Below, in pieces: positions 8,199-62,044 of a stretch of DNA of 64,000 nt. A program made the position numbers and the translations under genes. The stretch is taken from IMG/VR virus record IMGVR_UViG_3300025121_000038, positions 16,999-80,998 of that record; one strand, given 5' to 3'. Position 1 is the first letter of the stretch. Every line of letters begins with the position of its first letter. Source of the DNA: a virus. A model generated the notes under the pieces. The model searched no databases and was not told the DNA's origin. It was given only the letters and a program-made list of their open reading frames with translations.

Positions 8199-8237
8199 TG
8201 GCGGTCCCAGAGAGAATCGAACTCTCGTTTTTTCACG
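8199..8237 (-). pseudogene. 3' half of split tRNA (Asp-type acceptor)
   Basis: CGTGA-AAAAC-GAGAG-TTCGATT-CTCTC-TGGGACC-G-CCA; pairs with 9153-9183. Confidence 0.85.
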
Positions 8238-8305
8238 TTTTATTAATGTTATATAACAAGCAAATTTGACTTCATTTAAAATAAATCGTACATTCATGGA
8301 TAAAC

Positions 8306-9157
8306 ATGCAAAAACAATATATTAAGAGTAGGCGTAAAGATCAAAAAAGAGAGATGCTAACCTACAAAGGTGGATCATGTCAATTATGTAATTACGCGAT
8401 ATGTGCTAGAGCAATGGATTTTCATCACAAAGACCCTACTCAAAAAGACTTCGGAATATGTGGTATGAATAAATCTTGGGAAGAAATTAAGACAGAATTA
8501 GACAAATGTATTTTAGTCTGTAAAAACTGTCACGGAGAAATACACGATGGCCTTCACGACCAATTTAAAATACTCAATGTAAAAGTGCGCTCAAACTATG
8601 CTAATAGAATATATTATTATCGAAAACAATTCAAACACAATTTAGTCCAATACGCGGGTGGGTATTGTGCTATTTGTACTTACAAAAAGAGTTACAGATG
8701 TTTATCTTTTCACCATTTGAACAAATCAACAAAAACATTTGAAATAAATGAAGCTACTCAGAAAACTTTGGAAGAGATAGCAGTAGAACTTGATAAATGT
8801 ATTTTATTATGTCTAAACTGTCACTCTGAGGTACATGACGAAATTTCTGACATAAGCGATGTTAAACCAATAAAAAATCTTGAATATCTCGATATCATAA
8901 AATCTCTCATTCAAAAAGATGAAAAACCATTAATAATAGAAAAATATTATTGTTTAGATTGTAATGTGGAAAAGAAAACATCCGCCGCAAGATGTGTTCC
9001 TTGCAGTCAAAAATACCAAGAGAAAGTGAAATGGCCAGAAATAGAAGAATTGATAGAAATGTTAAAAACAAGTAATAAAGTGTTATTGGCTAAACAACTC
9101 GGTGTTTCAGAAGCTGCTATACGGAAAAGGTTGTCAAAATATATGTTCAATACATGA
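8306..9157 (+). CDS. tandem-domain HNH endonuclease with C-terminal HTH
   Basis: Two CxxC...FHH...CxNCH units; LGVSEAAIRK. Confidence 0.9.
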   Translation: MQKQYIKSRRKDQKREMLTYKGGSCQLCNYAICARAMDFHHKDPTQKDFGICGMNKSWEEIKTELDKCILVCKNCHGEIHDGLHDQFKILNVKVRSNYANRIYYYRKQFKHNLVQYAGGYCAICTYKKSYRCLSFHHLNKSTKTFEINEATQKTLEEIAVELDKCILLCLNCHSEVHDEISDISDVKPIKNLEYLDIIKSLIQKDEKPLIIEKYYCLDCNVEKKTSAARCVPCSQKYQEKVKWPEIEELIEMLKTSNKVLLAKQLGVSEAAIRKRLSKYMFNT

Positions 9158-9183
9158 CGTACTAACCACTGTACGATGGAACC
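9153..9183 (-). pseudogene. 5' half of split tRNA
   Basis: GGTTCCA-TC-GTAC-AGTGGTTA-GTAC-G-TCATG. Confidence 0.85.
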
Positions 9184-9187
9184 CTTT

Positions 9188-10243
9188 TTAATGACAGCCA
9201 GTTTCTTTCATAGTCTTTCTAAACATAGAAACTATGCTTGAACGACATAATATTTTCACATCTTCAGGTAAGCGTTTATCTTTATTGACCCGTTTCAAAG
9301 ACTCGTCTCTACACAAAATAGCAATTCTCTGTCTCATATGATTGTCTTGTATATCCCTTATCGCAGACATACATTCAGACATATACGTAAGACAATGGGT
9401 TACTTTTTTAAATACTGCCTCCTTGTTTTCATCCATTCTATGGATAGCTTCTTTTAGTTCGGAGGTTATTAAAACATGTTCCATAATTTTCATTTTTAAA
9501 ATATCTGGTTAAACTACAAATCATCCTAAGCATTAACCTATGGAACCTTAGCTACCAGGTCAGTAGTCCACTTTTATCCCCACTAAACCATTTGCCTTGA
9601 TGAACCGTATCATGTCCCTTTATTTGGTGACATACAACCTGTTTGTTATCTTTATGTTCTTCACCACAAAGACCCAAACCTTGAGCCATTTTTGAAAAAT
9701 TGGGAGTAGGTAAATAAGGAGTCAAAGGTAAATCAGACTGGAGATATTGGTTCATTAATAAGTCCATGTCTTTAGAGGAAATCATTATTAAATATATCCG
9801 TTTTAGTTGTTAATCAAAATTATGTAACCTTAAACATCAACAACAGTATAACCGTGATCCTCTAAGATGGATGTCAATAAATTTACGTGATAATCAGAAC
9901 CTTGAAATGAGGTATTCACACAAAGGTACGAATGTAATGGCTCTAGAGTCTCTGGTAAGGCTCTAGACAAAATCTCTTGCCTTATGGCTCTAACCTCAGG
10001 ATCCAACTCTTTGAGGTCTGAGATTACTTTTTTATTCCAACATACTCTTTTCATAGCTCACCACTGAACAGAAGAAAAAACTACAACACAGGTACGTAGA
10101 AAATCTTCCCGAGCTTTACGTTCATTTGGGTCATAGCCCCACTCCGTCGCGGCTTTGTCTTTAGCCTCTTCTTCACTAAGAGCTTTTATCATCTTAGCGC
10201 CATCTTCGGTATATTCTGGGTCGTAAACAAAGTAGCAATTCAT
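9188..10243 (-). CDS. four hypothetical proteins (9188-9493, 9552-9785, 9830-10054, 10058-10243)
   Basis: ORF track, co-oriented. Confidence 0.6.
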
Positions 10244-10314
10244 GTCTAAGTTCCTCCTAAGGAGGAAAACGATTTGGTAGGAGAAAGACTTAGAGAGTTT
10301 TTGAAGATATAGAG

Positions 10315-10403
10315 CGGAGACGGAGAGATTCGAACTCTCGGACCTTTTTAGGGGCCACTTCCTTAGCAGGGAAGTACCTTAAACCAGACTCAGACACGTC
10401 TCC
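10315..10403 (-). tRNA. tRNA-Ser(GCU)
   Basis: CTTCC-CTGCTAA-GGAAG, long variable arm, G73; CCA not encoded. Confidence 0.9.
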
Positions 10404-10408
10404 ATAAA

Positions 10409-10497
10409 TGGCGGAGAGTTGGGGAATTGAACCCCAGAACGGGTATTAGCCGCCAGCCGCCTTCCAAGCGGGTTCCTCGACCAACCGGACACTCTCC
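10409..10497 (-). tRNA. tRNA-Ser(GGA)
   Basis: Loop TTGGAAG, long variable arm, G73, CCA. Confidence 0.85.
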
Positions 10498-10577
10498 AAA
10501 AATCAGCAAAATCTAATAATTTAAACAATAGTGTAGCAATAGTTTAAATTATTTGGTCAGGGGCTATCCTGGATTAT

Positions 10578-10610
10578 AGCAGGTGCCATAAGCCGCTCGA
10601 CCACCCTTCT
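10578..10610 (-). pseudogene. orphan 5' half of a class II tRNA
   Basis: AGAAGGG-TG-GTCGAGCGGCTTATGGC-A-CCTGCT with no T arm following. Confidence 0.5.
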
Positions 10611-10615
10611 ATAAA

Positions 10616-10689
10616 TGGAGCTCCTGAGAGGAATCGAACCCCTATCCTCTGAGTACAAAACAGACATTCTACCGTTGAACTACAGGAGC
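10616..10689 (-). tRNA. tRNA-Thr(UGU)
   Basis: Loop TTTGTAC; CCA. Confidence 0.9.
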
Positions 10690-10691
10690 AT

Positions 10692-10765
10692 TGGAGCGGG
10701 TAGAGAGAATCGAACTCTCAATTGTAACTTGGAAGGATACCGTGTTACCTTTACACTACACCCGC
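10692..10765 (-). tRNA. tRNA-Gly(UCC)
   Basis: Loop CTTCCAA, U73, CCA. Confidence 0.9.
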
Positions 10766-10849
10766 AATCGATTCGAACCCCGACCAAACATCAAAATTTA
10801 ATCTTTTTATACTTCTCTTGATTAGACTAAATAATTGACGAGAAGTTAA

Positions 10850-11590
10850 ATGCACATAACAAAAAATTTTTCTGAAGAAGGATTTGTTAAAAATATTAAA
10901 TGTTCTGACTCGGACTTCATAATTGCTGTAAATAAAACCATAAGTATCGCAGAATTACTAAGATACTTAAACATACCTCAACATAGGGGCAGGCATTATG
11001 AGTCTGTTAAATTTAAAATAAAACAATTAAAATTAGACACATCTCATTGGGGTCCTTATGTTAAACGTAATGGTCATAAAAGAAAAGATTTAAAAGACAT
11101 TCTTACAATAGGCACTTCCATATGTCATTTAAAAAGATTATTAGATGAAAATGTCTTAAAAAATGAATGTTATGAGTGTGGCCTAATACCCTATTGGAAA
11201 GAAAAACCTCTTAAATTACAAATTGACCATATCAATGGTATAAATACAGACAATAGACTTGAAAATCTAAGACTATTGTGTCCCAATTGTCACTCTCAAA
11301 CAGACACGTTTTGTGGTAGAAATGTAACAAAACGACATAAAAAGCCAACTTGCATAGATTGCAATACACAAATAAGCAGGAAATCTTTAAGGTGTACTAT
11401 TTGTCAAGCAAAAATTAATAAAGTTACTACAAAAATTACATGGCCAGAAACAAGAGATCTTATAAAGATGATAGAAAATAGTTCTGTATTGGCCACTTCA
11501 AGAAATTTAAAGTGTTCTGATGCAGCCGTATATAAACACTTAGAATCAAGAGGGTTTGTAGTAAAAAACAAAAAAGTTTATAAAGACTGA
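10850..11590 (+). CDS. HNH endonuclease with C-terminal HTH
   Basis: LQIDHINGINTDNRLENLRLLCPNCHSQT. Confidence 0.92.
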   Translation: MHITKNFSEEGFVKNIKCSDSDFIIAVNKTISIAELLRYLNIPQHRGRHYESVKFKIKQLKLDTSHWGPYVKRNGHKRKDLKDILTIGTSICHLKRLLDENVLKNECYECGLIPYWKEKPLKLQIDHINGINTDNRLENLRLLCPNCHSQTDTFCGRNVTKRHKKPTCIDCNTQISRKSLRCTICQAKINKVTTKITWPETRDLIKMIENSSVLATSRNLKCSDAAVYKHLESRGFVVKNKKVYKD

Positions 11591-11615
11591 CACACTACCA
11601 TTGTGTTATACCCGC
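11583..11615 (-). pseudogene. 5' half of tRNA-Gly
   Basis: GCGGGTA-TA-ACAC-AATGGTA-GTGT-G-TCAGT-CTT, then HNH sequence. Confidence 0.85.
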
Positions 11616-11746
11616 ATAAATTTTATCAGAGCGTAGGTCGAATTCCACTCCACCGTGTCCAGGTCTTTACCCTATTGGACCCTGTCTGCGAATGCCCGGT
11701 TCGACTCACGCATCCACCTTCACAGATTACGGTATGATAAAATTGT

Positions 11747-11820
11747 TGGCGGTCCCAAGGGGAATCGAACCCCTACAGTCTCGTAGACAGCGAGACATAC
11801 TGCCGTTATATTATGGAACC
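11747..11820 (-). tRNA. tRNA-Asp(GUC)
   Basis: Loop CTGTCTA, G73, CCA. Confidence 0.88.
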
Positions 11821-11824
11821 AAAT

Positions 11825-12269
11825 GCTACTTAAGCGTGCTTTTACGCCAAAGACCTCAAAGGGTTGATTAGGAAGTCCCAGAAATACCCCTATCCTATTA
11901 CCTGTATTTCTAGTCAGACCCTCAGTTCCTCTGGTACTGTGAGGGCAATTCCTAACCCGCTACTGCTATGTTTTACAGATCTTTACCTTACGAGGGGAAC
12001 TTCAGCTATTGCTAACTTACTAAACCTCCGACAAAGATCCATAACCCATCATTCACACGCCCATTCGTAGTTTAATCTTACATATTCCGGAGCACATAGA
12101 GTATATGTTAAGGTCTTAAACCTTCAAACCTCTATGAGGGTCTCCCCGCTTATTAATTCGGATCAACAACCAAGTAAGATATCTTGATTTCGGATGCGCT
12201 TTCCTACTTTCTTCTACATTTCGGTCACTCATTAAGGGTGGACGCTTCTAATCCTACCTCTTAAGTAGC
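11825..12269 (-). ncRNA. candidate large structured ncRNA (~445 nt)
   Basis: Closing stem GCTACTTAAG/CTTAAGTAGC; fills the gap between two tRNA-Asp genes; many internal stems. Confidence 0.6.
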
Positions 12270-12343
12270 TGGCGGTCCCGAAGGGAGTCGAACCCTCAAA
12301 TCTTGATAGACAATCAAGCATTTTACCGTTAAATTACGGGACC
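12270..12343 (-). tRNA. tRNA-Asp(GUC)
   Basis: CTTGA-TTGTCTA-TCAAG; CCA. Confidence 0.9.
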
Positions 12344-12491
12344 GTTACCTGTGTAATATGCTCCTCAGGCCGGAGTTTTAAGGTTTAGATAGAGCTCCAA
12401 AGCTCTAGTTTCTTAACAGATTGAAGGTTTGGAGTCCCTCGTGTGTTAATTGACTAAAGGATCTGTCCTTGCGGTACAGTACCCTATCTAA

Positions 12492-12566
12492 TGGTGGTCT
12501 CGGAGAGGATCGAACTCTCTTCTCCAGGTTGAAAGCCAAGCGTCTTAGCCAATGGACCACGAGACC
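12492..12566 (-). tRNA. tRNA-Glu(UUC)
   Basis: Loop CTTTCAA; CCA. Confidence 0.9.
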
Positions 12567-12775
12567 AAAATTGTAAACTCACAAACAGATAATCGCATTC
12601 CCAAATGCGCGCTCTTGTAATGTAAAGAGGGGTCTTGTTCTCTTTACTTTTCGTTTACTCACTTATAACGTTCTTAAGTTGCACAAAGTTAGATGTTATT
12701 TTAAAATAAAGCGGAACAGGTGGTGCGACCCACACTCGGATCCTAGTTCACTTCGCGCTAGCTGTGACTGTCCGC

Positions 12776-12850
12776 TGGCTGGGGTAATAGGATTCGAACC
12801 TATAATAAGAGATTCAGAGTCTCCTGGTTTGCCAATTAGCCTATACCCCA
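12776..12850 (-). tRNA. tRNA-Gln(CUG)
   Basis: TGGGGTA/TACCCCA, loop CTCTGAA; CCA. Confidence 0.92.
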
Positions 12851-12856
12851 ATTATC

Positions 12857-13264
12857 TTATGCTATAAGATGTTTACGCATCTTATCATATTCAAGGTTTA
12901 GATACTCTATGTGTTTCTTTAGTCTTTCACAATTTTCCTCTACTAAAGAATTATAATGTCTTACACATTCTTCTTTATTGTCAAATATACATATAAATTC
13001 TGGAAATCTAGTATTATCCCACATGGGAATCTTCTTTCCAGATTTAGTTTTAATCTCTTTCAAATTTGGTTGATAAATTTGCGGCACGACAAGACATGTT
13101 ACTTCTGTAGGTTTTACATGTCTTGTCGGAGTATATTTACGTACATCAGAAAATCTATAATCACATACCCAATATGTCATACCTTCTTGAAGGGTAGTGT
13201 CTGATAAAATTTTCAAAATAATTCCTATAAATGTTGGATGGGGAGGAAGGATTTGAACCTTCAA
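12857..13264 (-). CDS. hypothetical protein (true start probably downstream of the tRNA fragment)
   Basis: ORF track. Confidence 0.6.
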   Translation of the reverse strand: MKVQILPPHPTFIGIILKILSDTTLQEGMTYWVCDYRFSDVRKYTPTRHVKPTEVTCLVVPQIYQPNLKEIKTKSGKKIPMWDNTRFPEFICIFDNKEECVRHYNSLVEENCERLKKHIEYLNLEYDKMRKHLIA

Positions 13265-13272
13265 CCTCTTGG
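13235..13272 (-). pseudogene. 3' half of split tRNA (Gln-type)
   Basis: GAAGG-TTCAAAT-CCTTC-CTCCCCA-T-CCA; pairs with TGGGGAG at 14098-14104. Confidence 0.8.
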
Positions 13273-13300
13273 TGCTGAGTCTGATGTAGTGCCACTTCTG

Positions 13301-13978
13301 CTATAATTTAAACAGATGTTTTCTTATAGCCGCCTCAGAAACCCCTAATCTTTTGGCAACCGTAGTTCTATTTGTTAATTTTATTTCTTCCAATAAATCT
13401 ATATCAGATGGCCAAATTATTTTCTTTTTCTTAGGGAGACTGTTAAAACACTTTTTGCATGTTGAAGCATTCAACGTTATTGTCTTTTGACAATGTGGAC
13501 ACTTATTACCAACAAAATCTGTCTTTTTCTTATTACGACCAGCAAAAGTAGGAGTTTGACTATGACAATTTGGACACAACAATCTTAAATTTTCTAACCT
13601 ATTGTCGGTATTAACCCCATTGATATGGTCAAGATGTAAAACCAAGGGTTCACCTTGCCAGATTGAACTTACCCCGCATTTCTCACACTTCTCTTGTATT
13701 ATATTATCTCGTATCAATTTTGTTTTCAAATCACGAGGTCTAAAGTTGGAATTGTCCCGTAATGGTTCTAATTTTAGACTTTTTCTATCATTAGGTTTCT
13801 TCAAGTCTGAAAGAGACAGGTTTTCTTCAGCCATTCTATTTTTTAATGTCTGACAATTTCCACCGGCTTGTTGCAGACCATAATGTGCTAGAATTTCAGT
13901 TAAAGTCTCACAACTTAAAACAATGTTTTTAAAATTCTCAGAAGAATCTTTCCAAATTGGACTTCGTCGTTTATTCAT
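13301..13978 (-). CDS. HNH endonuclease with C-terminal HTH
   Basis: LHLDHINGVNTDNRLENLRLLCPNCHSQT; LGVSEAAIRK. Confidence 0.92.
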   Translation of the reverse strand: MNKRRSPIWKDSSENFKNIVLSCETLTEILAHYGLQQAGGNCQTLKNRMAEENLSLSDLKKPNDRKSLKLEPLRDNSNFRPRDLKTKLIRDNIIQEKCEKCGVSSIWQGEPLVLHLDHINGVNTDNRLENLRLLCPNCHSQTPTFAGRNKKKTDFVGNKCPHCQKTITLNASTCKKCFNSLPKKKKIIWPSDIDLLEEIKLTNRTTVAKRLGVSEAAIRKHLFKL

Positions 13979-14058
13979 TGGCAGACGTGGTAGGATTCGA
14001 ACCTACATAAATGACCTGGGTTCAAAGCCCAGCGCAACGCCAATTTTGCTACACGTCT
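13979..14058 (-). tRNA. tRNA-Gln(UUG)
   Basis: CTGGG-CTTTGAA-CCCAG; CCA directly followed by the HNH ATG. Confidence 0.88.
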
Positions 14059-14089
14059 AAAACCTTTTAAAATTACTTCAAACCTGAAA

Positions 14090-14104
14090 TTGTGCTACTC
14101 CCCA
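14090..14104 (-). pseudogene. 5' stub of split tRNA
   Basis: TGGGGAG-TA-GCAC-AA. Confidence 0.6.
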
Positions 14105-14171
14105 ATTATGTTGAGGTCACCTAATTTTCATGTTTGATACACCTCAAGGTCTCAAACACTAGATGGTTTCG

Positions 14172-14225
14172 TTATCCATCTCCATATTTGCCTTCATGTT
14201 CTCCAAAACACATCTCACATATCAT
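14172..14225 (-). pseudogene. N-terminal remnant of a zinc-finger endonuclease gene
   Basis: MICEMCFGEHEGKYGDG*; resembles the CExCxxEHxGxYG start of phage HNH proteins (from memory). Confidence 0.5.
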
Positions 14226-14253
14226 TTTTTACCTTTAATTTCTTCCAAATCTT

Positions 14254-14340
14254 TAGTGGCTGTGGAGAGACTCGAACTCTCACATCCTTTCGGACCCTGG
14301 TTCTGAGCCAGGTGCGTCATACCAATTGCGCTACACAGCC
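14254..14340 (-). tRNA. tRNA-Leu(CAG), long variable arm
   Basis: CCTGG-CTCAGAA-CCAGG; ends A-CTA. Confidence 0.9.
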
Positions 14341-14343
14341 AAA

Positions 14344-14370
14344 TTGCCTCTACCGTTGGGCTACACCGGC
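14344..14370 (-). pseudogene. orphan 5' half of a tRNA (Leu-type D arm)
   Basis: GCCGGTG-TA-GCCCAACGGTAGAGGC-A, abutting the intact tRNA-Leu. Confidence 0.8.
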
Positions 14371-14571
14371 ATTTTTCAAAATAACAAATTACAAATGGTT
14401 TGAAACACTAACAAAGCCATCAAATCATAAGTAACAACGTTAACAAAGACTCCATTCAAAAGTAGGTTCTCAAATGCTTCTTTTATTTTGGTCGTTTCGT
14501 TATATAACCTTAGTTTAAGGGTTCAAGTTGATAACGAAATCTGTTTCAAGTATCTAAGATATAAAGTTTAT

Positions 14572-14648
14572 TGGTCGGAACGGCGGGATTTGAACCCACG
14601 ACCCCTACCACCCCAAGGTAGTGCTCTACCAAGCTGAGCCACGTTCCG
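14572..14648 (-). tRNA. tRNA-Pro(GGG)
   Basis: CTACC-TTGGGGT-GGTAG; CCA. Confidence 0.93.
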
Positions 14649-14724
14649 TGGTCTAGGTGACTGGATTCGAACCAGCGTGAACCTGCTTCCAACGCAGGTA
14701 GGTCAACCACTGCCTTACACCTAG
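14649..14724 (-). tRNA. tRNA-Pro(UGG)
   Basis: CCTGC-GTTGGAA-GCAGG; CCA. Confidence 0.88.
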
Positions 14725-14727
14725 ATA

Positions 14728-14931
14728 CTAATCTGTAACAGTCGAATCAATCTCGATGCGGTAATCTCCGCCGTCATAAAGATCATAGCCGAAACATTGA
14801 AACTGCTTATAATCGATATCAAGGCTAACCTTGGAGAGATCTACATCATCCCCGTACTTGGCCTTAATTGCGTCAATAAGGTCCTGAGCGGTAACCTGGA
14901 TCGAACTGCCACACATCAAAAGAGCATCCAT
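14728..14931 (-). CDS. hypothetical protein
   Basis: ORF track; AGGA upstream. Confidence 0.65.
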   Translation of the reverse strand: MDALLMCGSSIQVTAQDLIDAIKAKYGDDVDLSKVSLDIDYKQFQCFGYDLYDGGDYRIEIDSTVTD

Positions 14932-15014
14932 GATAAAGTTCCTTTTTGGTTTTAAGGTTTGTTTATCGTAAACGTTCTTTCCTACAAAGAAATCAGATAA
15001 GTTCTGAAATAAAT

Positions 15015-15088
15015 TGGAGCGGATGGAGAGAATCGAACTCTCACCTTCTGCATGGCAAGCAGATACACTACCATTGTGTTACACCCGC
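15015..15088 (-). tRNA. tRNA-Gly(GCC)
   Basis: TCTGC-TTGCCAT-GCAGA; CCA. Confidence 0.92.
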
Positions 15089-15237: not shown

Positions 15238-15240
15238 ATT

Positions 15241-54641: not shown

Positions 54642-56023
54642 TTAAATAGGCTGTCCATCAATGTTTACTTTCATTTCTTTTAATACTCTTTCTAAATCTT
54701 CAGGTGGTACTTCATTTATAAAATCGTACCACCCGCGTTTCGCAAAATCTATATCTAAATGTTTTCTCTTTTGGAAAAGATCTCCGAATTTTTCTCGAAT
54801 TAAATCTAAAAGAGAGTAAGATCTGCCGCTTTGAATTTGTTTGCTTAATACGGATATCTGATTTGATAATTTCATAATATTCCTTAAGGAAGAGGTTTAG
54901 GAGTCCAACCAGATACTCTTTTTTCCATTATTCGAATATCGGATTTTAATTGTTGTATCTGACCTTCAGTCTGTGCTATTACCATCTTATAAGCCTTGTC
55001 CCATTTATGTTCTCCCTTATGAACAAGTATCGTTCGAGAACTATCTTTAAGATGAAGAGAATCTATTCTTCCGGAGTTTAGGTCCGCTAGGTATTTTTCT
55101 GTACCTTCAAGAGTCGGTATGAGATATGTATCTTTATAATTCTTACACCCAGCAGCGGATATCTCATACGGAGGCCACCCTACCCCAGGACAATCCCCAA
55201 TTACATATCCAATACCAGGTCTTTGGAATCCATGAAGAACCATAACGGGAGGATCCGCTATCTTTAATTTCATGTTCATGTTACATATGGAACATGTGCC
55301 GGTATTCTCTCTAGTCCTTTGATCTGCTGGTATATGTGCGCTTACACCTAATATCTCGGCGGCTTCATCTTTCATTTGACTATTATCTTTAAGCCACCAC
55401 CAAATCTTCTGCATCTCGCTATGGGCAAACGATTTACCATTCGGTAGTCGAATTCTAAAACCTATGGCCCCTCTGTATAAAACTGTTTCAAATCCGTATA
55501 CGTCACCAGAGGTTGAATCAAACCCTGTATTTCTTTTGCTATAAGTCAATCTAGACAGATACGTGGCATAATAGGTCCCTTTCTTTATTTTGTCCGGCAA
55601 CTCATGAACATAAGCTCTAGAGAGTATTTTGTAAGACGTTTCTATTGCTTCTTTTTCTTCTTGATCTCTTTCTTCAATAATTTTTGCTCTCTCAGGGCTT
55701 ACGTTCACTTTCCAACTATCGTCTTTGACTTCTCTATCATAGATATATACATAAATTGACTCCTCGGTAGACCCTCGGGAGGTTAAAAAAACCCCCTTCT
55801 TAAAGTCTTTCTGGAAATCTCTATCAATATAGTCTAATTGAACAGGCACTATATCCTTTTCAAAAGACCATCCTCTGAAATAAGGAATCACCTCTAACAA
55901 TTGTTTAGGGGTTAAACCCATTACAGCCCACTTACGTATCTTTTCTAAGATAGCTTTCGATGTTTGTGGGATGTCATTGATGTCAGCGGATAATTTACGT
56001 ATTTGATTTACTATGTCACTCAT
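54642..56023 (-). CDS. two hypothetical proteins (54642-54875, 54884-56023)
   Basis: ORF track; second start reassigned to MSDIV. Confidence 0.7.
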
Positions 56024-56073
56024 ATGTCCTCTTAATGCATTTTTAGAGGATGAATATAAAAACACTATGGAAC

Positions 56074-56109
56074 AAAAAAGGCCGTCTGGTGTAAAAACCA
56101 GACGGCCTT
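56074..56109 (-). terminator. intrinsic terminator
   Basis: AAGGCCGTCTGGT/ACCAGACGGCCTT with U tract. Confidence 0.85.
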
Positions 56110-56116
56110 CAAATTA

Positions 56117-56262
56117 TCTCTGTACAAGTTTAAAGAGCTGTGTCTTTTTAAGACAGCTTTATGGCTGTTGCCTTTTCCAGTTAGGCTACTTCCCCAAATT
56201 TTAGTGGGGAAGGAAGGATTCGAACCTCCATATTTGTGTATGCTCTAGGTGTAGTACAGAGA
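56117..56262 (-). ncRNA. Y-RNA-like RNA carrying a circularly permuted tRNA
   Basis: Closing stem TCTCTGTAC/GTACAGAGA; order is T arm, closed acceptor, D arm. Confidence 0.65.
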
Positions 56263-56276
56263 AACCTTAAAAATTT

Positions 56277-56383
56277 ACTTTGTGCAAATTTACAGTGCTA
56301 TGAGCGACCTTAAAACCTACTCCGAGGTTTTAAGGTCTAAACATATATCCGTGTTTTTGTATGCACCGTATGAGGCACAAAGT
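56277..56383 (-). ncRNA. second member of the same stem family
   Basis: ACTTTGTGC/GCACAAAGT, second stem, then ATACA. Confidence 0.55.
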
Positions 56384-56384
56384 T

Positions 56385-56418
56385 TGGTAGCGAGAGGTTG
56401 GAATCGAACCAAGTATCC
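56385..56418 (-). pseudogene. orphan tRNA 3' end (Met-type)
   Basis: TTGG-TTCGATT-CCAA-CCTCTCGCT-A-CCA. Confidence 0.75.
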
Positions 56419-56427
56419 GCTATATTA

Positions 56428-56501
56428 ATGCGGCAGAAAGAATTGAACTTTCGTCATTGGCTTATGAGGCCAAGCTGGAACCACCTCCAGTCTATGCCGC
56501 A
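56428..56501 (-). tRNA. tRNA-Met(CAU), atypical D arm, no CCA
   Basis: TTGGC-CTCATAA-GCCAA; acceptor extended to 13 bp. Confidence 0.78.
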
Positions 56502-56548
56502 TTAATAGAAACATTATTTCTTAAATAAAGTTAAATTCAGATCCAAAA

Positions 56549-57283
56549 TTATTTCTTATTCTGCCAGAAACCTTTCTCATACCCAAGACCAGAGTAATAG
56601 TCAAAGTCTTCTGGTTTAATTCTTAAATTTTTCTTTTCTTGGACATTACATATACCGATTAAACCTTTGTACTTCTCTCGGTATATTTCTGAATATTTAT
56701 TTTGCATAGTCTGAGAAAGACTTGATCTCATTTCTTCTGTTCTCTCATATTCGCATAAACGTTTCCCCTTAGAATTTTGAGATATCTTTCTTCTTGTTTC
56801 TTCAGAATGTTTAAACCCATTTTTCATTCTTTCTTTTGCTTTCAAAGAGATTTTCTTAAGGGTTTCTTCAGAAAAGAAATTTCCGTGATTTTTCAACAAT
56901 CTTGTCTCTCGTTCTTTTTGGATAACATCTACAGATTTTTTATAGTGAGTACCTATTCTCTTAAGAGATATTTTCTTTTTAGTTTCTTCAGAATGCTTTC
57001 TACCTTTAAAGGTAGCACCACCCTTACCGCCTGGAGCAAGGTTTAAACATTTTTCATCTTTAAGACACTGTTCTAATAAACATATCTCCAAAGCTAAAGC
57101 TTCTTCATATGTAGGTAAATACGCTATTACGGTCTTAATGAAATTATGTCGTCCATATTTTGTGATGGATCTTTTAATACGGATACCTGAACCCATATAT
57201 TTATCATCAATATTTTCAGTTTGATGTACCCCTATATAATATTGATCCGTTAATATATTGGTTATTTTATAAACTATATTCAT
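56549..57283 (-). CDS. GIY-YIG (Seg-like) homing endonuclease with NUMOD3 repeats
   Basis: IVYKITN...YYIG...YMGSG...YG..NF; HSEETKKKIS repeats. Confidence 0.92.
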   Translation of the reverse strand: MNIVYKITNILTDQYYIGVHQTENIDDKYMGSGIRIKRSITKYGRHNFIKTVIAYLPTYEEALALEICLLEQCLKDEKCLNLAPGGKGGATFKGRKHSEETKKKISLKRIGTHYKKSVDVIQKERETRLLKNHGNFFSEETLKKISLKAKERMKNGFKHSEETRRKISQNSKGKRLCEYERTEEMRSSLSQTMQNKYSEIYREKYKGLIGICNVQEKKNLRIKPEDFDYYSGLGYEKGFWQNKK

Positions 57284-57386
57284 AATTAAACCTAGAAAGT
57301 GTTGAGCTATCTTAATCGAATTAACCTCCTAAAAAAGAATTATTGTTCTTTACTTCAGACCAAATACTAACCAAAATGAGGATAAT

Positions 57387-58421
57387 ATGGCTATACCAGA
57401 AAATTTACGCGTCTATTCTAGAAAAGCGGAGACATTCAACATCCATAGTCTCGACGAGACGGTAAAGGCTCGTAAAGGTTTCGCAGTAGATATCAAAAGT
57501 AAAAATTTCCAGGCAACTGCAAGCAACTGGAGTCAGTCTATAACCCATCTAGCTCCTACCCTAAATAGATTCCAAGTTCTATTTGAAGAGGATGGAGACC
57601 TGTCAGAAGATACTCCCAACACTCCCATCAAGCTTAGGTTAGTGAGTCTTGAACATAGAGGTCAAGGTGGTAGGGCTTATAAGGTCGTCACAGAAACCGG
57701 TTACATTTATGATTTCAGAGAAGACGCTTTGATGGATGTTCTAACTACTGTTGGGGTAAGTCCAAAAGGACATTTGAACGGAGAATTTGTTTGGGCTTCT
57801 ATTGGTGCTCAGATGAAACTTATCCTTGTAGGTGGGAAAATTTGGAAGTCTTTCCAAAAAGACAAAGCAAGACAAGAAACCAAGAAAATAGATAACAAAG
57901 ACCTAGAAGTAGGTTGTGTTTACGAAACAAAGAACGGGGGTAAGACATTATTCTTAGGGTGGGGTCATACAGCTTTAGCTCCTAACAAGAAGGTTGGGGT
58001 ATGGAGAGGCATCGCAGGTTCTAGACGTGAGTGGGATCCTCAAACCAGAGAGATAAAGTATATTGAACTAACACCAGAGGAGGAGGTTGGTGATTTAGAC
58101 CCTATTATAGGGTCTAGAGATGTCATAAAGAAAATATCTGGGCCACATGACCTATTCATAAACAGGTTCACAGACATAAGAGAACCTGGTATACGACAAT
58201 TTGTTCGTGAATACGAACAAGAAATATCAAGAAGGTACAACATATCTGATCATTGGGGTAGACCTGCCAATAGAATACCCCCAACTAAACAGGACTTTTT
58301 CCAAAGTCAAATAAATAGTACATGGGATAGAAAGAACGTTTTGAGAGCGACTTTATTTCTTAGAACAGAACCTATTGTCATAGACCCAAGGTTGGTAGAT
58401 TTCTTCCCGCCTAAAGTATAA
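57387..58421 (+). CDS. hypothetical protein, paralogue of 46907-47935
   Basis: GAGG SD; shared N-terminal half. Confidence 0.85.
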   Translation: MAIPENLRVYSRKAETFNIHSLDETVKARKGFAVDIKSKNFQATASNWSQSITHLAPTLNRFQVLFEEDGDLSEDTPNTPIKLRLVSLEHRGQGGRAYKVVTETGYIYDFREDALMDVLTTVGVSPKGHLNGEFVWASIGAQMKLILVGGKIWKSFQKDKARQETKKIDNKDLEVGCVYETKNGGKTLFLGWGHTALAPNKKVGVWRGIAGSRREWDPQTREIKYIELTPEEEVGDLDPIIGSRDVIKKISGPHDLFINRFTDIREPGIRQFVREYEQEISRRYNISDHWGRPANRIPPTKQDFFQSQINSTWDRKNVLRATLFLRTEPIVIDPRLVDFFPPKV

Positions 58422-59181
58422 AAGCTTGATGTCTACGTACCGCTCCTTTAAATCCCGCACCACTAACATCAATATCCACGGGTACTTTTGTATAATGCAT
58501 CAAATAAGTTTTCTCTTTGATGTCCTTCGGAAGGGAGCATAAATCTTCATAATGAGTATGTACCGTACCTAGATATTTGGGTCCAAAGGTACAGTCATGA
58601 AATATGACATCCGCATTAAACAGTCCACATTGAGGATTGAAGATAGTATCTGAAGTGTAGTAAGCTGTTTTCTCCCCTTGTTTTAAGTATATCCCAAAGG
58701 ATGGTTTGTCAAAATTATTGCCTACCACATGTTCTGTTTTATGGAACCGAAATTGTACCCCGCCAAACTCAAACCATGTTGTCGGTATCTCTTCAATTAG
58801 ATCCTTACTACCTGTATTCTTAATGGTTCCATCCTGTGACGTATAATAATCTATACAGCTTGACAGGTATGGGGCAACATCTTTCAAGACACTGGGGGGA
58901 GACCATACTGTTACGCTTTTCCAGCTCGGGCCTAATAAGCCTGTATAATAGCTTTCCCAAATAAGTTGCTCAAGACCGCCTACATGGTCGCCATGCATAT
59001 GAGTCAAAGCGACTCCAGCTATTTCCCAAGGACGAATACCTAATTCTTTGAGGCTTTGTACGGCTGTAGAACCACAATCTATCAAAACCCATCCTTCAGT
59101 GGTTTCTACTATGACATTGTTGTGGTAGTTGTCTCTGTAATCAGTAAAGGCACCACCAGTCCCGAGGAATATTATTTTCAT
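58411..59181 (-). CDS. MBL-fold hydrolase (RNase Z/BN-like)
   Basis: FLGTGGAF, IDCG, THMHGDH, TSDT, HDC, VHTH. Confidence 0.85.
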   Translation of the reverse strand: MKIIFLGTGGAFTDYRDNYHNNVIVETTEGWVLIDCGSTAVQSLKELGIRPWEIAGVALTHMHGDHVGGLEQLIWESYYTGLLGPSWKSVTVWSPPSVLKDVAPYLSSCIDYYTSQDGTIKNTGSKDLIEEIPTTWFEFGGVQFRFHKTEHVVGNNFDKPSFGIYLKQGEKTAYYTSDTIFNPQCGLFNADVIFHDCTFGPKYLGTVHTHYEDLCSLPKDIKEKTYLMHYTKVPVDIDVSGAGFKGAVRRHQAFIL

Positions 59182-59266
59182 GTCGTATCTCCTTTTGTGT
59201 TTCGAGAAATATGACAACAAAAATGAGAATGGATTGTGAAAGAGATTATTTATTGGATATTTAGAG

Positions 59267-59338
59267 AGCACCTACTCAGATTCGAACTGAGGCTACATCT
59301 TTACGAGGGATGAGTTCTGCCCATTAAACTATAGGTGC
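59267..59338 (-). tRNA. tRNA-Thr(CGU)
   Basis: Loop CTCGTAA; no CCA. Confidence 0.87.
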
Positions 59339-59347
59339 GGAGATGTG

Positions 59348-59434
59348 TGGCGGAGAGTAGAGGAATCGAACCCCGAGCCTTTTAGAGCCCCGACAGTTTT
59401 CGAAACTGCTTGTCGACCATCGACCGTACTCTCC
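59348..59434 (-). tRNA. tRNA-Ser(CGA), 8/4 fold
   Basis: GGAGAGTA/TACTCTCC, 4-bp T stem, loop TTCGAAA, G73, CCA. Confidence 0.85.
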
Positions 59435-59542
59435 GGTTTTTTACTTCTTGTTTTTTCGTTCCCAGATCCAGAACCATACTGTTCTAGCTGATTCCCAAAT
59501 CCAAAAATATGCGTTCTTAAAAAATTTCATATATCCCCTTTG

Positions 59543-59632
59543 TGGCGGTGGATAAGAGAATCGAACTCTTGAGAGGGTATTAGCCTCCAGCCGCTTTCAA
59601 GGCGGTTTCCTCGTCCATGCCGGACACCCACC
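59543..59632 (-). tRNA. tRNA-Ser(UGA)
   Basis: Loop CTTGAAA, long variable arm, G73, CCA. Confidence 0.87.
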
Positions 59633-59856
59633 ATATTTAAGACTCAGCAGTCTACCATTTAAATAGAATATGCACAACTCATATCAACAAGATCTAATAC
59701 TTGACAGTGCAAATTAGTCATAAAAATTGTTTTTATATACGATTTTTTATCTCATGACTTTACATTAGAATGAATAGAACTAGACATACTCCATAACCTT
59801 AACGAAACGATCCGATAAGGTTTGTAATCAAAAACTAGAAAACGAGGGTATGACAC

Positions 59857-60510
59857 ATGAGAGCAACCGCAGCACAAGTCGATCAAATCAAAGAATTCCG
59901 CGCTAAAGGCTTAACCTATGACGCGATAGCGCATAAGGTAGACCCGCCAGTGAGCTACTATATCGCTTCTAGGTACTCGAAAGGGGTCGACAAGCCCATC
60001 AAAGGCAATCGTAAAGTAGGACCCACTCCTCAGACAGATACAGCTACACAGACCGTTCAAGCCGTAGGTCAAATTCAAGATACCACTACAAATCAAAGCG
60101 TGACTCAGCCACCTCAAGCTATCTCCAATGTTCAGCACGAGATGGTAGAGATGAGAGTAGCTCTCGCTCTTGCTAAATCCGGTATTACCCCAAGCAAGCC
60201 TATGTTGTGTGGTACATCTTATGAGCTGATCGCAGACAACGGCTCTGACCTGGTCCGGATCAAGGTGGAAGAAGCCATCATCAAGAATGGTGTCCTGTGT
60301 TTCGACAAAATGGGTGGGAGCGTCGACATTTATGCTATCTACGACAAACGTAATGACACCATCTACTGGGTACCCTCCGACGAAAAGTCAAACAAGCTCA
60401 GTCTCAAAGACCGCAAGCGTGGCAAGATGCCAAACGCTTCTGACTATCAGAAGCCGATATTCTCGGGCCTACGATCTGACCAATCTCAATCGGCTTCTAC
60501 TCACCATTGA
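59857..60510 (+). CDS. HTH plus degenerate PD-(D/E)XK domain protein
   Basis: GLTYDAIA HTH; YELIAD...RIKVE in place of YDL...QVK. Confidence 0.65.
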   Translation: MRATAAQVDQIKEFRAKGLTYDAIAHKVDPPVSYYIASRYSKGVDKPIKGNRKVGPTPQTDTATQTVQAVGQIQDTTTNQSVTQPPQAISNVQHEMVEMRVALALAKSGITPSKPMLCGTSYELIADNGSDLVRIKVEEAIIKNGVLCFDKMGGSVDIYAIYDKRNDTIYWVPSDEKSNKLSLKDRKRGKMPNASDYQKPIFSGLRSDQSQSASTHH

Positions 60511-60793
60511 GATACATTTTTACTTCCTCCGAAATCCCATCCAGTAAGTCCTCGTTCATCTGTCTCATCAAGTCTTTAGCCCTGTCCAAATTACCAGACC
60601 GTAAACTCGCTATTATATAAGTCCAGACCGCTTGATAAATAAAGTCTGGAAGTGATTGTGGATTATTCCTTGTAGATTGGATAGATGTTTGTATAGACGC
60701 TATAACGTTCGAATGATCTTCCTCTTTAATAGACCGTCTAATTTTGTAAATAGTAGTGTCCAACAGGGTATAAACAAAAAGCCCTATGATCAT
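60497..60793 (-). CDS. hypothetical protein
   Basis: ORF track; start uncertain. Confidence 0.45.
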   Translation of the reverse strand: MIIGLFVYTLLDTTIYKIRRSIKEEDHSNVIASIQTSIQSTRNNPQSLPDFIYQAVWTYIIASLRSGNLDRAKDLMRQMNEDLLDGISEEVKMYLNGE

Positions 60794-60811
60794 TTGATCA
60801 TAGGGCTTTTT
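60776..60811. terminator. bidirectional-type terminator
   Basis: AAAAAGCCCTATGATCA-TT-TGATCATAGGGCTTTTT. Confidence 0.85.
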
Positions 60812-60816
60812 AAAAA

Positions 60817-60940
60817 TTACCGTTCAAGTCTTAAGGACTAATGAGTTATATGCAGGTTTCGAGCCTGCTACATTTCGTGTTCAAGACGAATGCTCTACCA
60901 ATGAGCTAATATGTGTATGTCCTAAACGTCAGAACGGCAA
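60817..60940 (-). ncRNA. Y-RNA-like RNA enclosing a tRNA cloverleaf
   Basis: TGCCGTTC/GAACGGTA, AGGAC/GTCCT, ATACACA, then D, anticodon (CTTGAAC) and T arms. Confidence 0.65.
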
Positions 60941-61114
60941 AAACTATTTCCAATAAATCTTGATGAACTTTATAGCAGCATATATCAAGAGTATAATACA
61001 AGTAATTTTTAGAATAAAACCAAAATAATAAATCCCAATAAGAGCTAAAAATCCCATAATTAAGAATTCTAACATGCCCATTTTTGGAATTACATTTGTG
61101 GTCTTTTTTACCAT

Positions 61115-61141
61115 TGGAGCCAACAGAGAGAATCGAACTCC
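61115..61141 (-). pseudogene. 3' end of split tRNA
   Basis: GAG-TTCGATT-CTCTC-TGTTGGC-T-CCA; pairs with 62018-62044. Confidence 0.85.
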
Positions 61142-61190
61142 ATAGTTGTATTAACTTACTTATATAAGTAAGTTAATACAACTATGGAGT
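61137..61190. repeat. perfect 54-bp palindrome
   Basis: ACTCCATAGTTGTATTAACTTACTTAT/ATAAGTAAGTTAATACAACTATGGAGT. Confidence 0.95.
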
Positions 61191-61203
61191 ATAAAAAGGT
61201 ACT

Positions 61204-61965
61204 ATGTTTAAATTTCAAGAAATAATTAAAAATCCAGAATTAATCAAAAACTATACTTACACTCAAGACGTTCCTTTAATATGCGAAGCTTGTAAAGCAA
61301 CCTTCTTAAGGAACAAGTTGGACCTTACAATAAAAATCAAAAAAGGCAGGAAAAAGTCCTATTGTTCTAAACAATGTAGTTATACATCCACAAGAAAAAC
61401 AGAAGAAATAAAATGTACTAATTGTCAAAAAGCTATCTTTCGACTTTCTTCACACATCGGTACAAACAATTTTTGTGGCCATACTTGTTCGGCAATTTTC
61501 AACAATACAGGCAGAAAAACCAAAAAATATGTAGCCCCTTTAACACATTGTTTATTTTGCAACAAGAGTTTATTTTCTTCAGAAAATAAACTCTTCAAAA
61601 CTGGAAAGAAATACTGTAATCATAAATGCCATCATGCATTTGTGCGTCAACAAAAAATAGAAAAATGGCTTTCTAATGAAAATGTAGAGGCTACGCCCCA
61701 TGGGAGTTTACCAAATCATATTTACAATTACATACGAAATTTTTATGAAAATAAATGTTCTAGATGTGGTTGGAATGAAATAAATGAGCAAACGAAAAAA
61801 TCACCCCTAAATATACATCATATAGACGGTAATTATAGAAATAACAGATTTGACAATTTGGAGTTATTGTGCCCAAATTGTCACTCACTGACACATAATT
61901 ATGGAAGTTTAAATAAAGGTAAAGGAAGAGAATTTAGGTACAAAAAAGCTCTCACCGGGACTTGA
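61204..61965 (+). CDS. zinc-finger HNH endonuclease
   Basis: LNIHHIDGNYRNNRFDNLELLCPNCHSLT. Confidence 0.92.
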   Translation: MFKFQEIIKNPELIKNYTYTQDVPLICEACKATFLRNKLDLTIKIKKGRKKSYCSKQCSYTSTRKTEEIKCTNCQKAIFRLSSHIGTNNFCGHTCSAIFNNTGRKTKKYVAPLTHCLFCNKSLFSSENKLFKTGKKYCNHKCHHAFVRQQKIEKWLSNENVEATPHGSLPNHIYNYIRNFYENKCSRCGWNEINEQTKKSPLNIHHIDGNYRNNRFDNLELLCPNCHSLTHNYGSLNKGKGREFRYKKALTGT

Positions 61966-62017
61966 ACCCAGAATTTCACCATACCAAGATGATGTTTTAC
62001 CTTTAAACTATAAGAGC
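61947..62017 (-). tRNA. tRNA-Thr(GGU)
   Basis: TCATC-TTGGTAT-GGTGA; no CCA; overlaps the HNH 3' end. Confidence 0.88.
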
Positions 62018-62044
62018 AGTGTAATACCACTATACTATGTCGGC
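62018..62044 (-). pseudogene. 5' half of split tRNA
   Basis: GCCGACA-TA-GTATAGTGGTATTAC-ACT abutting the intact tRNA-Thr. Confidence 0.85.

Follow-up and report, generated by a model that had tools for sequence, protein, structure and literature searches.

Free-standing nuclease genes among split tRNA genes and a split tuf gene, with substitute gene parts alongside, in a large groundwater phage

Results

Eight nuclease genes in a phage tRNA array

The window analysed here is a stretch of 64,000 nucleotides (nt) from a large phage, bases 16999–80998 of the 80,998-base IMG/VR viral record IMGVR_UViG_3300025121_000038, which comes from groundwater and has a CheckV completeness of ~35%. Its G+C content is 38%. 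ARAGORN predicts 42 tRNA genes in the window, on the minus strand without exception, and each of the 36 Rfam matches at gathering score is a tRNA. Among these genes, and beside the gene of elongation factor EF-Tu (tuf), stand eight nuclease genes, nearly all of which adjoin stranded pieces of a broken gene. We call each nuclease gene, together with such pieces and any working copy of the same gene, a cassette. Two studies have groundwater metagenomes in which the window DNA is present almost unaltered, and a third study contains a relative; the phage itself is uncultured, all its sequence coming from metagenomes. A near search of a phage collection with 16 kb of the window found no near relative.

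A preliminary description of the window had assigned the eight nucleases to three folds, and their open reading frames (ORFs) and folds were borne out at the coordinates given there: five are HNH, two of the PD-(D/E)XK type and one of the GIY-YIG type (n1 to n8 in Table 1). The assignments come from Pfam and PHROG, for n5 from a family profile and for n4 from leads. Pfam gave no nuclease match for n1 or n6, which are paralogs with 39% identity. The nearest Atlas clusters of n4 are DUF559/Vsr-like (score 0.95–0.98, a lead only), and it matches phrog_9084, annotated as homing endonuclease; a paralog with 63% identity and the same layout lies just upstream of the window, at 14508–15173 of the genome. 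Queried singly, n5 had no family match. A profile of 30 members of its family matches PD-(D/E)XK cores (Bax1, 1.3e-4; T7 endonuclease I, 2e-3), and D60, E71 and K73 are invariant in this family, which counts 1701 representatives at E ≤ 0.001. The GIY-YIG-type n7 carries NUMOD3 (Pfam) and matches phrog_314, a homing endonuclease family, at 1e-34; against TIGR01453, the group I intron endonuclease model, it reaches 40 bits, under the 56-bit cut-off. An N-terminal domain is common to n8 and n4.

Every one of these ORFs is separate, none being fused to another gene, and five of the eight run antisense to the strand of the tRNA or host gene. Judged from their sequences, they appear to be nucleases of folds known among homing endonuclease genes, standing outside any intron or intein. 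Beyond the eight, three further nuclease genes, absent from the preliminary description, are n9 (6135–7049), the PDDEXK_5 gene at 59857–60510 and the 63% paralog of n4 upstream of the window.

Stranded gene pieces and substitutes

Stranded pieces of a tRNA gene or of tuf lie directly beside seven of the eight nuclease genes, and six of these seven also have a neighbouring intact gene or new gene end of the same type. The preliminary description had claimed broken-gene fragments for every nuclease and an adjacent copy or new end in seven cases; this stood for Gly, Gln, His, Glu, Thr and tuf, with fragments also at Asp, and failed for the GIY-YIG gene n7, which has an untypable T-arm piece and a loose association with tRNA-Met. 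Three layouts can be told apart when the cassettes are read on the minus strand, the strand of the tRNAs.

In the first layout the substitute is a whole gene: a unit of tRNA and nuclease gene sits inside the old gene, whose outer halves are kept. This holds for Gln and Thr and probably for Glu. At Gln, a 17-nt 5′ stub is followed by 29 nt, a complete tRNA-Gln(TTG), n3 straight after the CCA of this tRNA, and the 3′ part. At Thr, the 5′ part abuts tRNA-Thr(GGT), after which come the antisense n8, a 54-nt palindrome and the 3′ part; the split gene is typed as Thr from a 10-nt match and from adjacency only. At Glu, the complete tRNA is followed by n5, again straight after the CCA, and then by a Glu-like 3′ part with 24 of 28 letters identical to positions 48–75 of Glu(ttc).

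In the second layout, seen at Gly, His and tuf, a new 5′ or 3′ part is fused to the old remainder, and the displaced old part is stranded beyond the nuclease gene. The Gly cassette runs from the 5′ part, which ends at the first anticodon base and matches positions 1–24 of Gly(gcc) at 96%, through the antisense n2 and a cut T-arm to a complete tRNA-Gly(TCC). The His cassette consists of a complete tRNA, the antisense Vsr-like n4 and a 21-nt copy of the tRNA 3′ end. The third layout is confined to Asp, where the 5′ part, the antisense n1 and the 3′ part follow one another with no substitute within: the split gene is defunct, its role being left to other Asp genes.

The outer acceptor halves pair at seven of seven positions for Asp, Gln and Thr alike, as the preliminary description had stated, and the Gly 5′ piece pairs equally well (7/7) with the present Gly 3′ end. 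For two random 7-mers of the window the chance of such pairing is 0.0015 per pair. The layout is compact: ORFs end at the junctions, and twice a CCA abuts an ATG.

The protein gene tuf bears the second layout too. A ribosome-binding site with 13 codons is followed by the antisense HNH gene n6 and then by a complete tuf with an odd N-terminus. Among the 20 closest EF-Tu proteins retrieved, one is the window's own; the canonical N-terminal motif encoded by the stranded fragment occurs in all 19 others (72–80% identity) and not in the working tuf. Many of the ~20 nt just ahead of the break are different letters in the fragment and in the substitute.

Table 1. Nuclease genes, stranded gene pieces, working copies and related features of the window (positions are those of the window).
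Feature	Position	Strand	Remarks
n9	6135–7049	-	PD-(D/E)XK-type; weak Phage_endo_I match and C2H2 fingers; PDF..EVK motif
Orphan tRNA 3′ fragment with CCA	7095–7123	-	46 nt upstream of n9
tRNA-Asp 3′ fragment (T arm, acceptor strand, G, CCA)	8199–8229	-	
n1	8306–9157	+	HNH; phrog_2255 "HNH endonuclease" 7e-40; antisense; stop codon at break
tRNA-Asp 5′ fragment (acceptor strand and D arm)	9159–9183	-	pairs 7/7 with 3′ fragment
Working tRNA-Gly(TCC), hybrid	10692–10765	-	ARAGORN and Rfam, 61 bits
Cut T-arm piece	10770–10785	-	directly upstream of hybrid tRNA-Gly
n2	10850–11590	+	HNH; Pfam HNH_3 and HNH; phrog_10822 7e-39; antisense
tRNA-Gly(UCC) 5′ fragment, positions 1–33	11583–11615	-	broken inside anticodon loop
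tRNA-Gln 3′ fragment (variable loop, T arm, acceptor strand, T, CCA)	13235–13267	-	
n3	13301–13978	-	HNH; Pfam HNH; phrog_10822 3e-38; tRNA strand
Substitute tRNA-Gln(TTG), acceptor stem unrelated	13979–14058	-	60 bits; CCA abuts n3 ATG
tRNA-Gln 5′ fragment (acceptor strand, D-arm start), 17 nt	14088–14104	-	pairs 7/7 with 13239–13245
tRNA-His 3′-end copy, 21/21 exact	15947–15967	-	from first T of T-loop; then full CCA
n4	15999–16712	+	Vsr/DUF559-like; antisense; 3′ end overlaps tRNA-His
Working tRNA-His	16652–16723	-	Rfam 62 bits; 3′ end CCT where repeat has CCA
Glu-like 3′ fragment (T arm, acceptor strand, A, CCA)	17102–17129	-	2 nt past n5 stop
n5	17131–17820	-	PD-(D/E)XK; T7 endonuclease I / Bax1-like core
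Working tRNA-Glu(TTC), unusual T-loop	17821–17894	-	53 bits; CCA abuts n5 ATG
Four orphan T-arm pieces, cluster	17909–18133	-	upstream of tRNA-Glu; one span 26.7 bits, tRNA-Sec-like
Working tuf (EF-Tu, three domains)	19289–20482	-	Pfam GTP_EFTU 2.5e-59, with D2 and D3; atypical N-terminus to P-loop
n6	20584–21501	+	HNH; phrog_2255 1e-59; antisense; between tuf fragment and tuf
Stranded tuf start (ribosome-binding site and 13 codons)	21504–21555	-	broken inside P-loop codons
tRNA-Met (56427–56502) with degenerate T-arm/3′ piece (56386–56421)	56386–56502	-	piece follows tRNA-Met after 8 nt
n7	56549–57283	-	GIY-YIG-type; upstream of tRNA-Met
3′ fragment of split Thr-like tRNA (T arm, acceptor strand, T, CCA)	61115–61142	-	
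Perfect 54-nt palindrome	61137–61190	.	between n8 and 3′ fragment; hairpin-like Rfam matches on both strands
n8	61204–61965	+	HNH; Pfam HNH; phrog_1271; antisense
Substitute tRNA-Thr(GGT)	61947–62017	-	60 bits
5′ fragment of split Thr-like tRNA, 27 nt	62018–62044	-	abuts working tRNA-Thr; pairs 7/7 with 61119–61125

Junctions and uninterrupted alleles in groundwater metagenomes

The region 6000–23500, which holds six cassettes, was compared with metagenome contigs for cover of the junctions and for empty alleles; cassettes 7 and 8 (56–62 kb) lie outside it. Contigs of X1, X3 and X5, three samples from two studies with X1 possibly the source sample, cover the junctions of all six cassettes with 0–1 differing letters. 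The six cassettes are not an assembly artefact. At one point an X5 contig follows the window as far down as 8194, beyond which its sequence is unrelated; 8194 lies 5 nt past the CCA of the Asp 3′ fragment and is therefore a structural variant edge at a tRNA end.

X7, a run of another groundwater study, contains a relative ~85–93% identical to the window, its pieces differing by ~7–15%. Contigs of X7 join 8229 to 9159 (with 19 letters between), 10719 to 11583 (13 letters) and 13267 to 14088 (27 letters). Read by eye on the tRNA strand, these joints form complete canonical cloverleaves with the anticodons GTC, TCC and TTG. The Asp joint supplies the anticodon arm with GTC; the Gly joint supplies the rest of the anticodon loop (TCC), the 3′ strand of the stem and the variable loop; and the Gln joint supplies the end of the D arm and the anticodon arm with TTG. 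The preliminary description had proposed a search for such alleles in related phages as a check of its reading, and the outcome favours that reading. The relative in X7 appears to have plain tRNA-Asp(GTC), tRNA-Gly(TCC) and tRNA-Gln(TTG) genes in place of the cassettes of the window, a shared flank being indicated only for Gln. For these three cassettes the contigs point to the presence/absence polymorphism expected of a homing endonuclease gene.

The Gln flank is seen in a 754-nt X7 contig, with the same depth of 6.2 as the joint, which covers 14343–14589; three small indels, at 14127, 14501 and 14562, also have a listed depth of 6.2. From this shared depth we infer a single contig with ~500 nt of upstream flank. 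As the Gly joint falls at position 47 of the present tRNA-Gly, the present gene is a hybrid, in which positions 1–46 (10720–10765) are new and positions 47–74 (10692–10719) are the old 3′ part. At His, the alignment of X7 record 29 ends exactly at 15967, the edge of the repeat, which fits an empty site without proving one. X7 has no cover over 15968–17679, and its tuf contig begins at 20155; cassettes 4, 5 and 6 are not comparable there. A pattern scan of viral contigs for the uninterrupted Gln allele gave 0 matches.

Two further candidates were set aside. Other joints in the same comparison (8225 to 10691, 14284 to 15472, and inside tuf) have high depth and short sides; they were taken as tRNA or EF-Tu genes of other organisms and were not used. 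A 5-bp complementarity flanking the Asp insert, considered as a preserved anticodon stem, is unproven and lies 2 nt out of register with the X7 allele.

Association of orphan fragments with nuclease genes

Viral contigs with EF-Tu relatives are jumbo-phage contigs of ~190–620 kb, and in many of them EF-Tu is embedded in a tRNA array. At 50–65% identity, plus one partial match at 77%, they are too distant for allele comparison and were therefore used for a survey of fragments only. A metagenome scan with EF-Tu gave, among the matches listed, bacterial EF-Tu at 58–65%, the 77–80% relatives not being among them, and a scan of viral contigs with n6 found no relative.

For the survey, intact tRNAs were masked, and the window and 30 loci were searched by short-word BLAST with 500-odd tRNAs. 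There were 148 orphan fragments, of which 137 share the strand of the tRNAs; with a strict T-arm pattern there were 126 orphans against 8 expected from shuffles. No 5′ partners were found for the 3′ pieces at 7095–7123, 17102–17129, 52332–52355 and 62061–62077, for which they were sought, and tblastn of the nucleases against the genome detected no decayed nuclease gene beside orphan fragments.

We then scored nuclease genes, and other ORFs of ≥100 amino acids in the array zones, for a fragment within 120 nt. In the window, fragments lie near 7 of 10 nucleases and near 1 of 29 other ORFs (Fisher p 6e-5); the sole non-nuclease positive overlaps the Gln 3′ part and is itself doubtful as an ORF. 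In 22 related loci with ≥5 tRNAs the bias is weak (6/19 nucleases against 34/266 other ORFs, p 0.035). The automated test is blind to half T-arms, and one locus, L015, scored negative. That fragments are commoner beside nucleases than beside other genes, as the preliminary description would have it, is therefore a strong effect in the window and a weak one in its relatives.

Recurrence in unrelated phages

The Vsr-like family of n4 has nine distinct members, namely the window's two copies and those in loci L015, L113, L114, L115, L117, L118 and L119; L116, L120 and L121 are identical to L115 and were counted once. In six of the nine, an antisense tRNA stands at the 3′ end of the ORF and a 3′ fragment starting at the T-loop lies on its far side. 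The partner tRNAs of these six are His, one untyped, Gly, Met, one uncalled by ARAGORN, and Gln. The fragment is unlike the working end in L015 and L115. In L118 the T-loop is the point where a tRNA is split, and a new end is lacking; in L119 a tRNA-Thr(GGT) is split after the anticodon arm; in L117 nothing of the layout was seen.

The n5 family occurs at 13 loci, which form 10 distinct groups. Eight of these touch tRNA-Glu(UUC), and a T-loop-bearing fragment lies on the far side in five of the eight (L122, L124, L126, L128 and L129). Both viral relatives of n8 touch tRNA-Thr. Relatives of n3 lie inside tRNA arrays in four of six loci, with no constant partner.

At the Glu cassette of the window (17821–17894 and 17102–17129) and in L124 (1375–1450), the T-loops drew attention: those of tRNA-Glu(UUC) genes beside n5-type nucleases start with A instead of the near-universal T, and the stranded fragment in L124 has a canonical T-loop. 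The A-starting T-loop may be how the Glu substitute escapes cutting.

Other features of the window

Several further tRNA remnants were noted. At 56165–56229 (minus strand), 8 nt separate a tRNA 3′ part (T arm and acceptor strand) from the 5′ part that comes next, and the acceptor strand of the latter is complementary to that of the former at 7/7 positions. These are halves of one tRNA type in permuted order, also able to form a hairpin, and could be the junction of two tandem copies, each minus its outer part; a strong terminator-like hairpin comes after them, just before the ORF at 54884–56065. A Leu-type 5′ part at 14340–14370 (minus) abuts an intact tRNA-Leu(CAG), and after this pair comes a 17-codon Cys-rich ORF (14180–14235, minus). 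Fragment and ORF are possibly a decayed nuclease cassette; a 3′ partner of the Leu-type part was sought and not found.

ARAGORN reports two unusual tRNAs, at 62131–62205 and 45630–45704 (both minus), one with a two-base "anticodon" in an odd loop and one with TTA, which would read stop UAA; both score well in Rfam. Between the nuclease gene at 59857 and the Thr cassette, Rfam finds a tRNA missed by ARAGORN (60848–60912, minus; 46.7 bits, model positions 4–67). Inspection by eye gives a GAA anticodon and an acceptor pairing of 4/7, and this is probably a damaged tRNA-Phe gene. Between two intact tRNA-Asp(GTC) genes lie ~450 nt (11821–12269, minus) that are richer in G+C and hold no convincing ORF, and a similar stretch of 130 nt lies downstream of the second copy (11616–11746, minus). 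These stretches may be structured RNAs; no Rfam family matched either of them.

Among the protein genes, 28489–32931 (minus) encodes 1480 amino acids, of which the C-terminal ~200 resemble phage proteins annotated with PARP/ADP-ribosylation (26–33% identity); in the phage collection this protein has weak, partial matches only. Two ORFs of metallo-beta-lactamase fold lie in the second tRNA zone (58411–59271 and 53765–54589, both minus), the former also matching the anti-Pycsar Apyc1 family (1.4e-18, 68 bits against a 50-bit cut-off). The ORFs at 57387–58421 (plus) and 46907–47935 (minus) are paralogs (49% identity over 205 amino acids) of phrog_2475, whose function is unknown; one of them adjoins the GIY-YIG gene n7.

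Discussion

A proposed splicing-free route into conserved genes

We now propose that free-standing homing-endonuclease cassettes invade conserved genes without splicing and carry a working substitute for the part that they break, a reading to which we give a probability of about three in four. To the observed anatomy, empty alleles, fragment–nuclease association and recurrence in other phages it would add cleavage, a route of repair and a resistant substitute.

In a mixed infection, the nuclease would cut the intact gene of a cassette-free phage. The stranded piece ends at one sharp point in each family and the ORFs end at the junctions, and we infer from this that the cut falls at that point: in the anticodon-arm region for HNH nucleases, where the T-loop begins for the Vsr-like ones, and in the P-loop codons of tuf. 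In the founding event, one broken end would invade the diverged homologue of the donor, and the other would be joined without homology; it is such one-sided repair that would make the stranded piece end exactly at one point. Where a single piece is stranded (Gly, tuf, His, Glu), the other end most likely copied the gene part of the donor together with the nuclease gene. Where both pieces are present (Asp, Gln, Thr), 19–27 nt around the anticodon arm would have been lost and both junctions would be non-homologous. Afterwards, the stranded pieces and flanks would provide homology on two sides, and the cassette could home by ordinary double-strand-break repair. The substitute differs from the target around the break and is presumably left uncut. 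Repeated rounds would scatter tRNA debris across the array.

The insert-and-replace strategy put forward in the preliminary description is thus supported, and its claim to generality is limited by the Asp cassette and by the unclear GIY-YIG case.

Several observations weigh against this proposal. The gene n7 shows no clear split gene: the piece at 56386–56421 is not typable as Met, nothing lies on the other side of the nuclease gene, and this one case of the eight is not counted. The Asp cassette has no substitute to carry, and the nuclease gene at 59857 (PDDEXK_5) has no fragment beside it. At His the two copies are identical (21/21), so that the new one is not distinguishable, and whatever the target was, its tRNA part is present again in the working tRNA. 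Orphan pieces also lie away from nucleases, at 17909–18133, 52332–52355, 56211–56229 and 62061–62077, and some of these could be functional tRNA-like RNAs and not debris. The X7 contigs for Asp and Gly show little or no match beyond the tRNA itself (for Asp, the depth of the neighbouring bin fits cover of the tRNA part only), and these genes could lie at another place in the relative. No fragment was detected for 13 of the 19 nuclease homologues in relatives, and in a cruder, earlier count there was no enrichment (2/13 against 27/220). Related loci were called by eye from matches that are short and decayed. Cleavage of empty alleles by the nucleases is presumed from the layout, and resistance of the substitutes to cutting is a guess.

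Alternative explanations

The alternative that survives best, which we hold to be improbable, makes the nucleases mere neighbours of the damage: arrays would recombine and decay by themselves, through slippage and unequal crossing-over, and selfish genes would settle in the gaps. It draws on the orphan fragments, which are common in all related arrays and occur away from nucleases as well, and on the weakness of the bias in relatives in both counts. It has to contend with the strong bias in the window, with breaks that lie within a few bases of ORF ends, with three nuclease families that keep their partner or break point in unrelated phages, and with the same scar in a protein gene, tuf.

Less probable again is the retention of the stranded pieces as working RNA, whether as processing signals (RNase P or RNase Z, for example, could recognise a split tRNA through halves paired on either side of the insert) or as stable tRNA-like RNAs. 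The acceptor halves do still pair in full, and the T arms and CCA ends of the fragments are intact. However, fragments at related loci are visibly decayed in comparison with the working copies, five of the eight nuclease genes run antisense to the transcribed tRNAs, and the relative in X7 has plain, intact tRNAs.

That the inserts are self-splicing introns or are removed in some other way, which would leave the split tRNAs functional, is very unlikely. The outer halves of Asp, Gln and Thr have both survived and pair with each other, and group I introns that hold endonuclease genes are known from bacterial tRNA genes (PMC3984707). Yet no intron family occurs among the 45 and 26 Rfam matches at E ≤ 10 in 7000–23500 and 51000–64000, and Intron_gpI, expected for a group I intron with a homing endonuclease gene, is matched neither there nor at gathering score in the window. 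The ORF nearly fills the insert, running antisense for Asp and Thr, and the anticodon arm, present in the X7 alleles, is absent from all three split genes. It is because of this Rfam result, the missing anticodon arms and the antisense ORFs that we set introns aside.

Just as little can be said for integration by a recombinase at tRNA 3′ ends with duplication, which would explain the 20–21-nt repeats at His and at the upstream paralog: the direct repeats over the tRNA 3′ end resemble attL/attR, and in an archaeon a new tRNA-Thr lies 1.8 kb from the tRNA-Thr fragment that an element with a recombinase left behind (PMC3293823), but Phage_integrase (PF00589), Resolvase (PF00239) and rve (PF00665) have 0 matches in the 81-kb record (~35% complete), the elements are ~700 bp long with the nuclease gene as their sole content, and in relatives the stranded copy is unlike the working end. 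These searches agree with the preliminary description, which had seen no intron, integrase or transposase.

Relation to known systems

The proposed cassettes have a parallel in fungal mitochondria. Mobile endonuclease ORFs there (Allomyces atp6 and others) carry a duplicate gene end, with the original end displaced downstream; the ORF is usually fused in frame to the C-terminal duplicate, and neither intron nor intein takes part. The Gly hybrid, the tuf start and the His 3′ end share with them a substitute end that is carried along and a displaced end that lies beyond the ORF, a likeness of design and not of descent. Unlike the fungal elements, the present ones are found in a phage, mostly in tRNA genes, include whole-gene substitutes and can replace either end; and where the fungal ORFs are fused in frame, all ORFs here are separate and five lie on the opposite strand. 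A restriction-fold homing endonuclease housed in a tRNA gene is likewise familiar from I-Ssp6803I, the PD-(D/E)XK homing endonuclease of a group I intron in tRNA-fMet; there the host element is a self-splicing intron, and Rfam detects none here.

Within phages, the free-standing GIY-YIG homing endonuclease SegB of T4 and T6 lies in a tRNA cluster and has a 27-bp site with a T-stem-loop motif, as a passage of PMC2330249 reports; according to part of PMC13096335, it drives biased inheritance and changes in tRNA copy number, and the co-location of nucleases with tRNAs is widespread. The cassettes resemble SegB in being free-standing nuclease genes inside a phage tRNA array, and the SegB target is tRNA gene DNA. 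They differ in that segB lies between tRNA genes, and those passages speak neither of split tRNAs or stranded halves nor of a substitute that is carried along; the cassettes belong to at least five nuclease families and affect tuf too.

In T4 intron homing, double-strand breaks can be repaired in a one-sided, illegitimate manner, with homology on one side, joining by microhomology on the other, and ectopic invasion (PMC2988022, in the section consulted). This is the route that we would assign to the founding events; the T4 case is an experimental intron system, and that section describes no natural cassettes bearing substitutes. The same source refers to genes that free-standing endonucleases have split with function kept, namely nrdA with mobE in Aeh1 and the split gene 43, and an excerpt of PMC2677866 to "fractured genes" with split inteins. 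As in nrdA/mobE and gene 43, a free-standing nuclease gene here sits within a conserved gene whose function survives. In those systems and in split inteins, however, both halves are used, by assembly or trans-splicing, whereas in the cassettes the old pieces are defunct and their place is taken by a substitute.

A tRNA-Thr(GGU) locus of Caldiarchaeum shows population heterogeneity, with a 5′ fragment 1.8 kb upstream of a second, working tRNA-Thr (PMC3293823, in part). It shares with the cassettes a tRNA fragment and a working tRNA-Thr with a mobile element between them; it differs in belonging to an archaeon, in an element that encodes a recombinase and in a new tRNA with introns. Finally, Pope et al. 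2014 is cited, in passages of PMC5966550 and PMC7589089, as tying HNH genes to the diversity of tRNA repertoires in cluster M mycobacteriophages, and may already describe part of the present design. Pope et al. 2014 aside, our literature searches found no description in phages of split tRNA genes with carried substitutes. What sets the cassettes apart is the combination in a phage of a fungal-type design with a SegB-type target, in which tRNA genes are split, either end or the whole gene is replaced, and at least five nuclease lineages take part.

Implications

In the textbook view, as given in a passage of PMC3943268, homing endonucleases need a self-splicing intron or an intein to enter conserved genes. 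The window points to a different, splicing-free solution, used many times in one phage, in RNA genes as well as a protein gene, and a natural population contains empty alleles. A wider claim, for which we see the odds as even, is that several unrelated nuclease folds share this splicing-independent entry, every element bringing a functional and presumably uncuttable copy or end of its target, and that it is the main engine of tRNA allele replacement between co-infecting jumbo phages; some nuclease lineages would be tied to an isotype (Glu, Thr) and one (Vsr-like) would enter at the universal T-loop, and the arrays would be layered records of invasion.

If the mechanism holds, it would account for tRNA debris and for the rapid reshuffling of phage tRNA arrays, and it would supply natural pairs of cut and uncut targets for at least five nuclease families. 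It would also be a source of new tRNA alleles, relevant to the escape of phages from host defences that target tRNAs, a topic taken up in part of PMC13096335.

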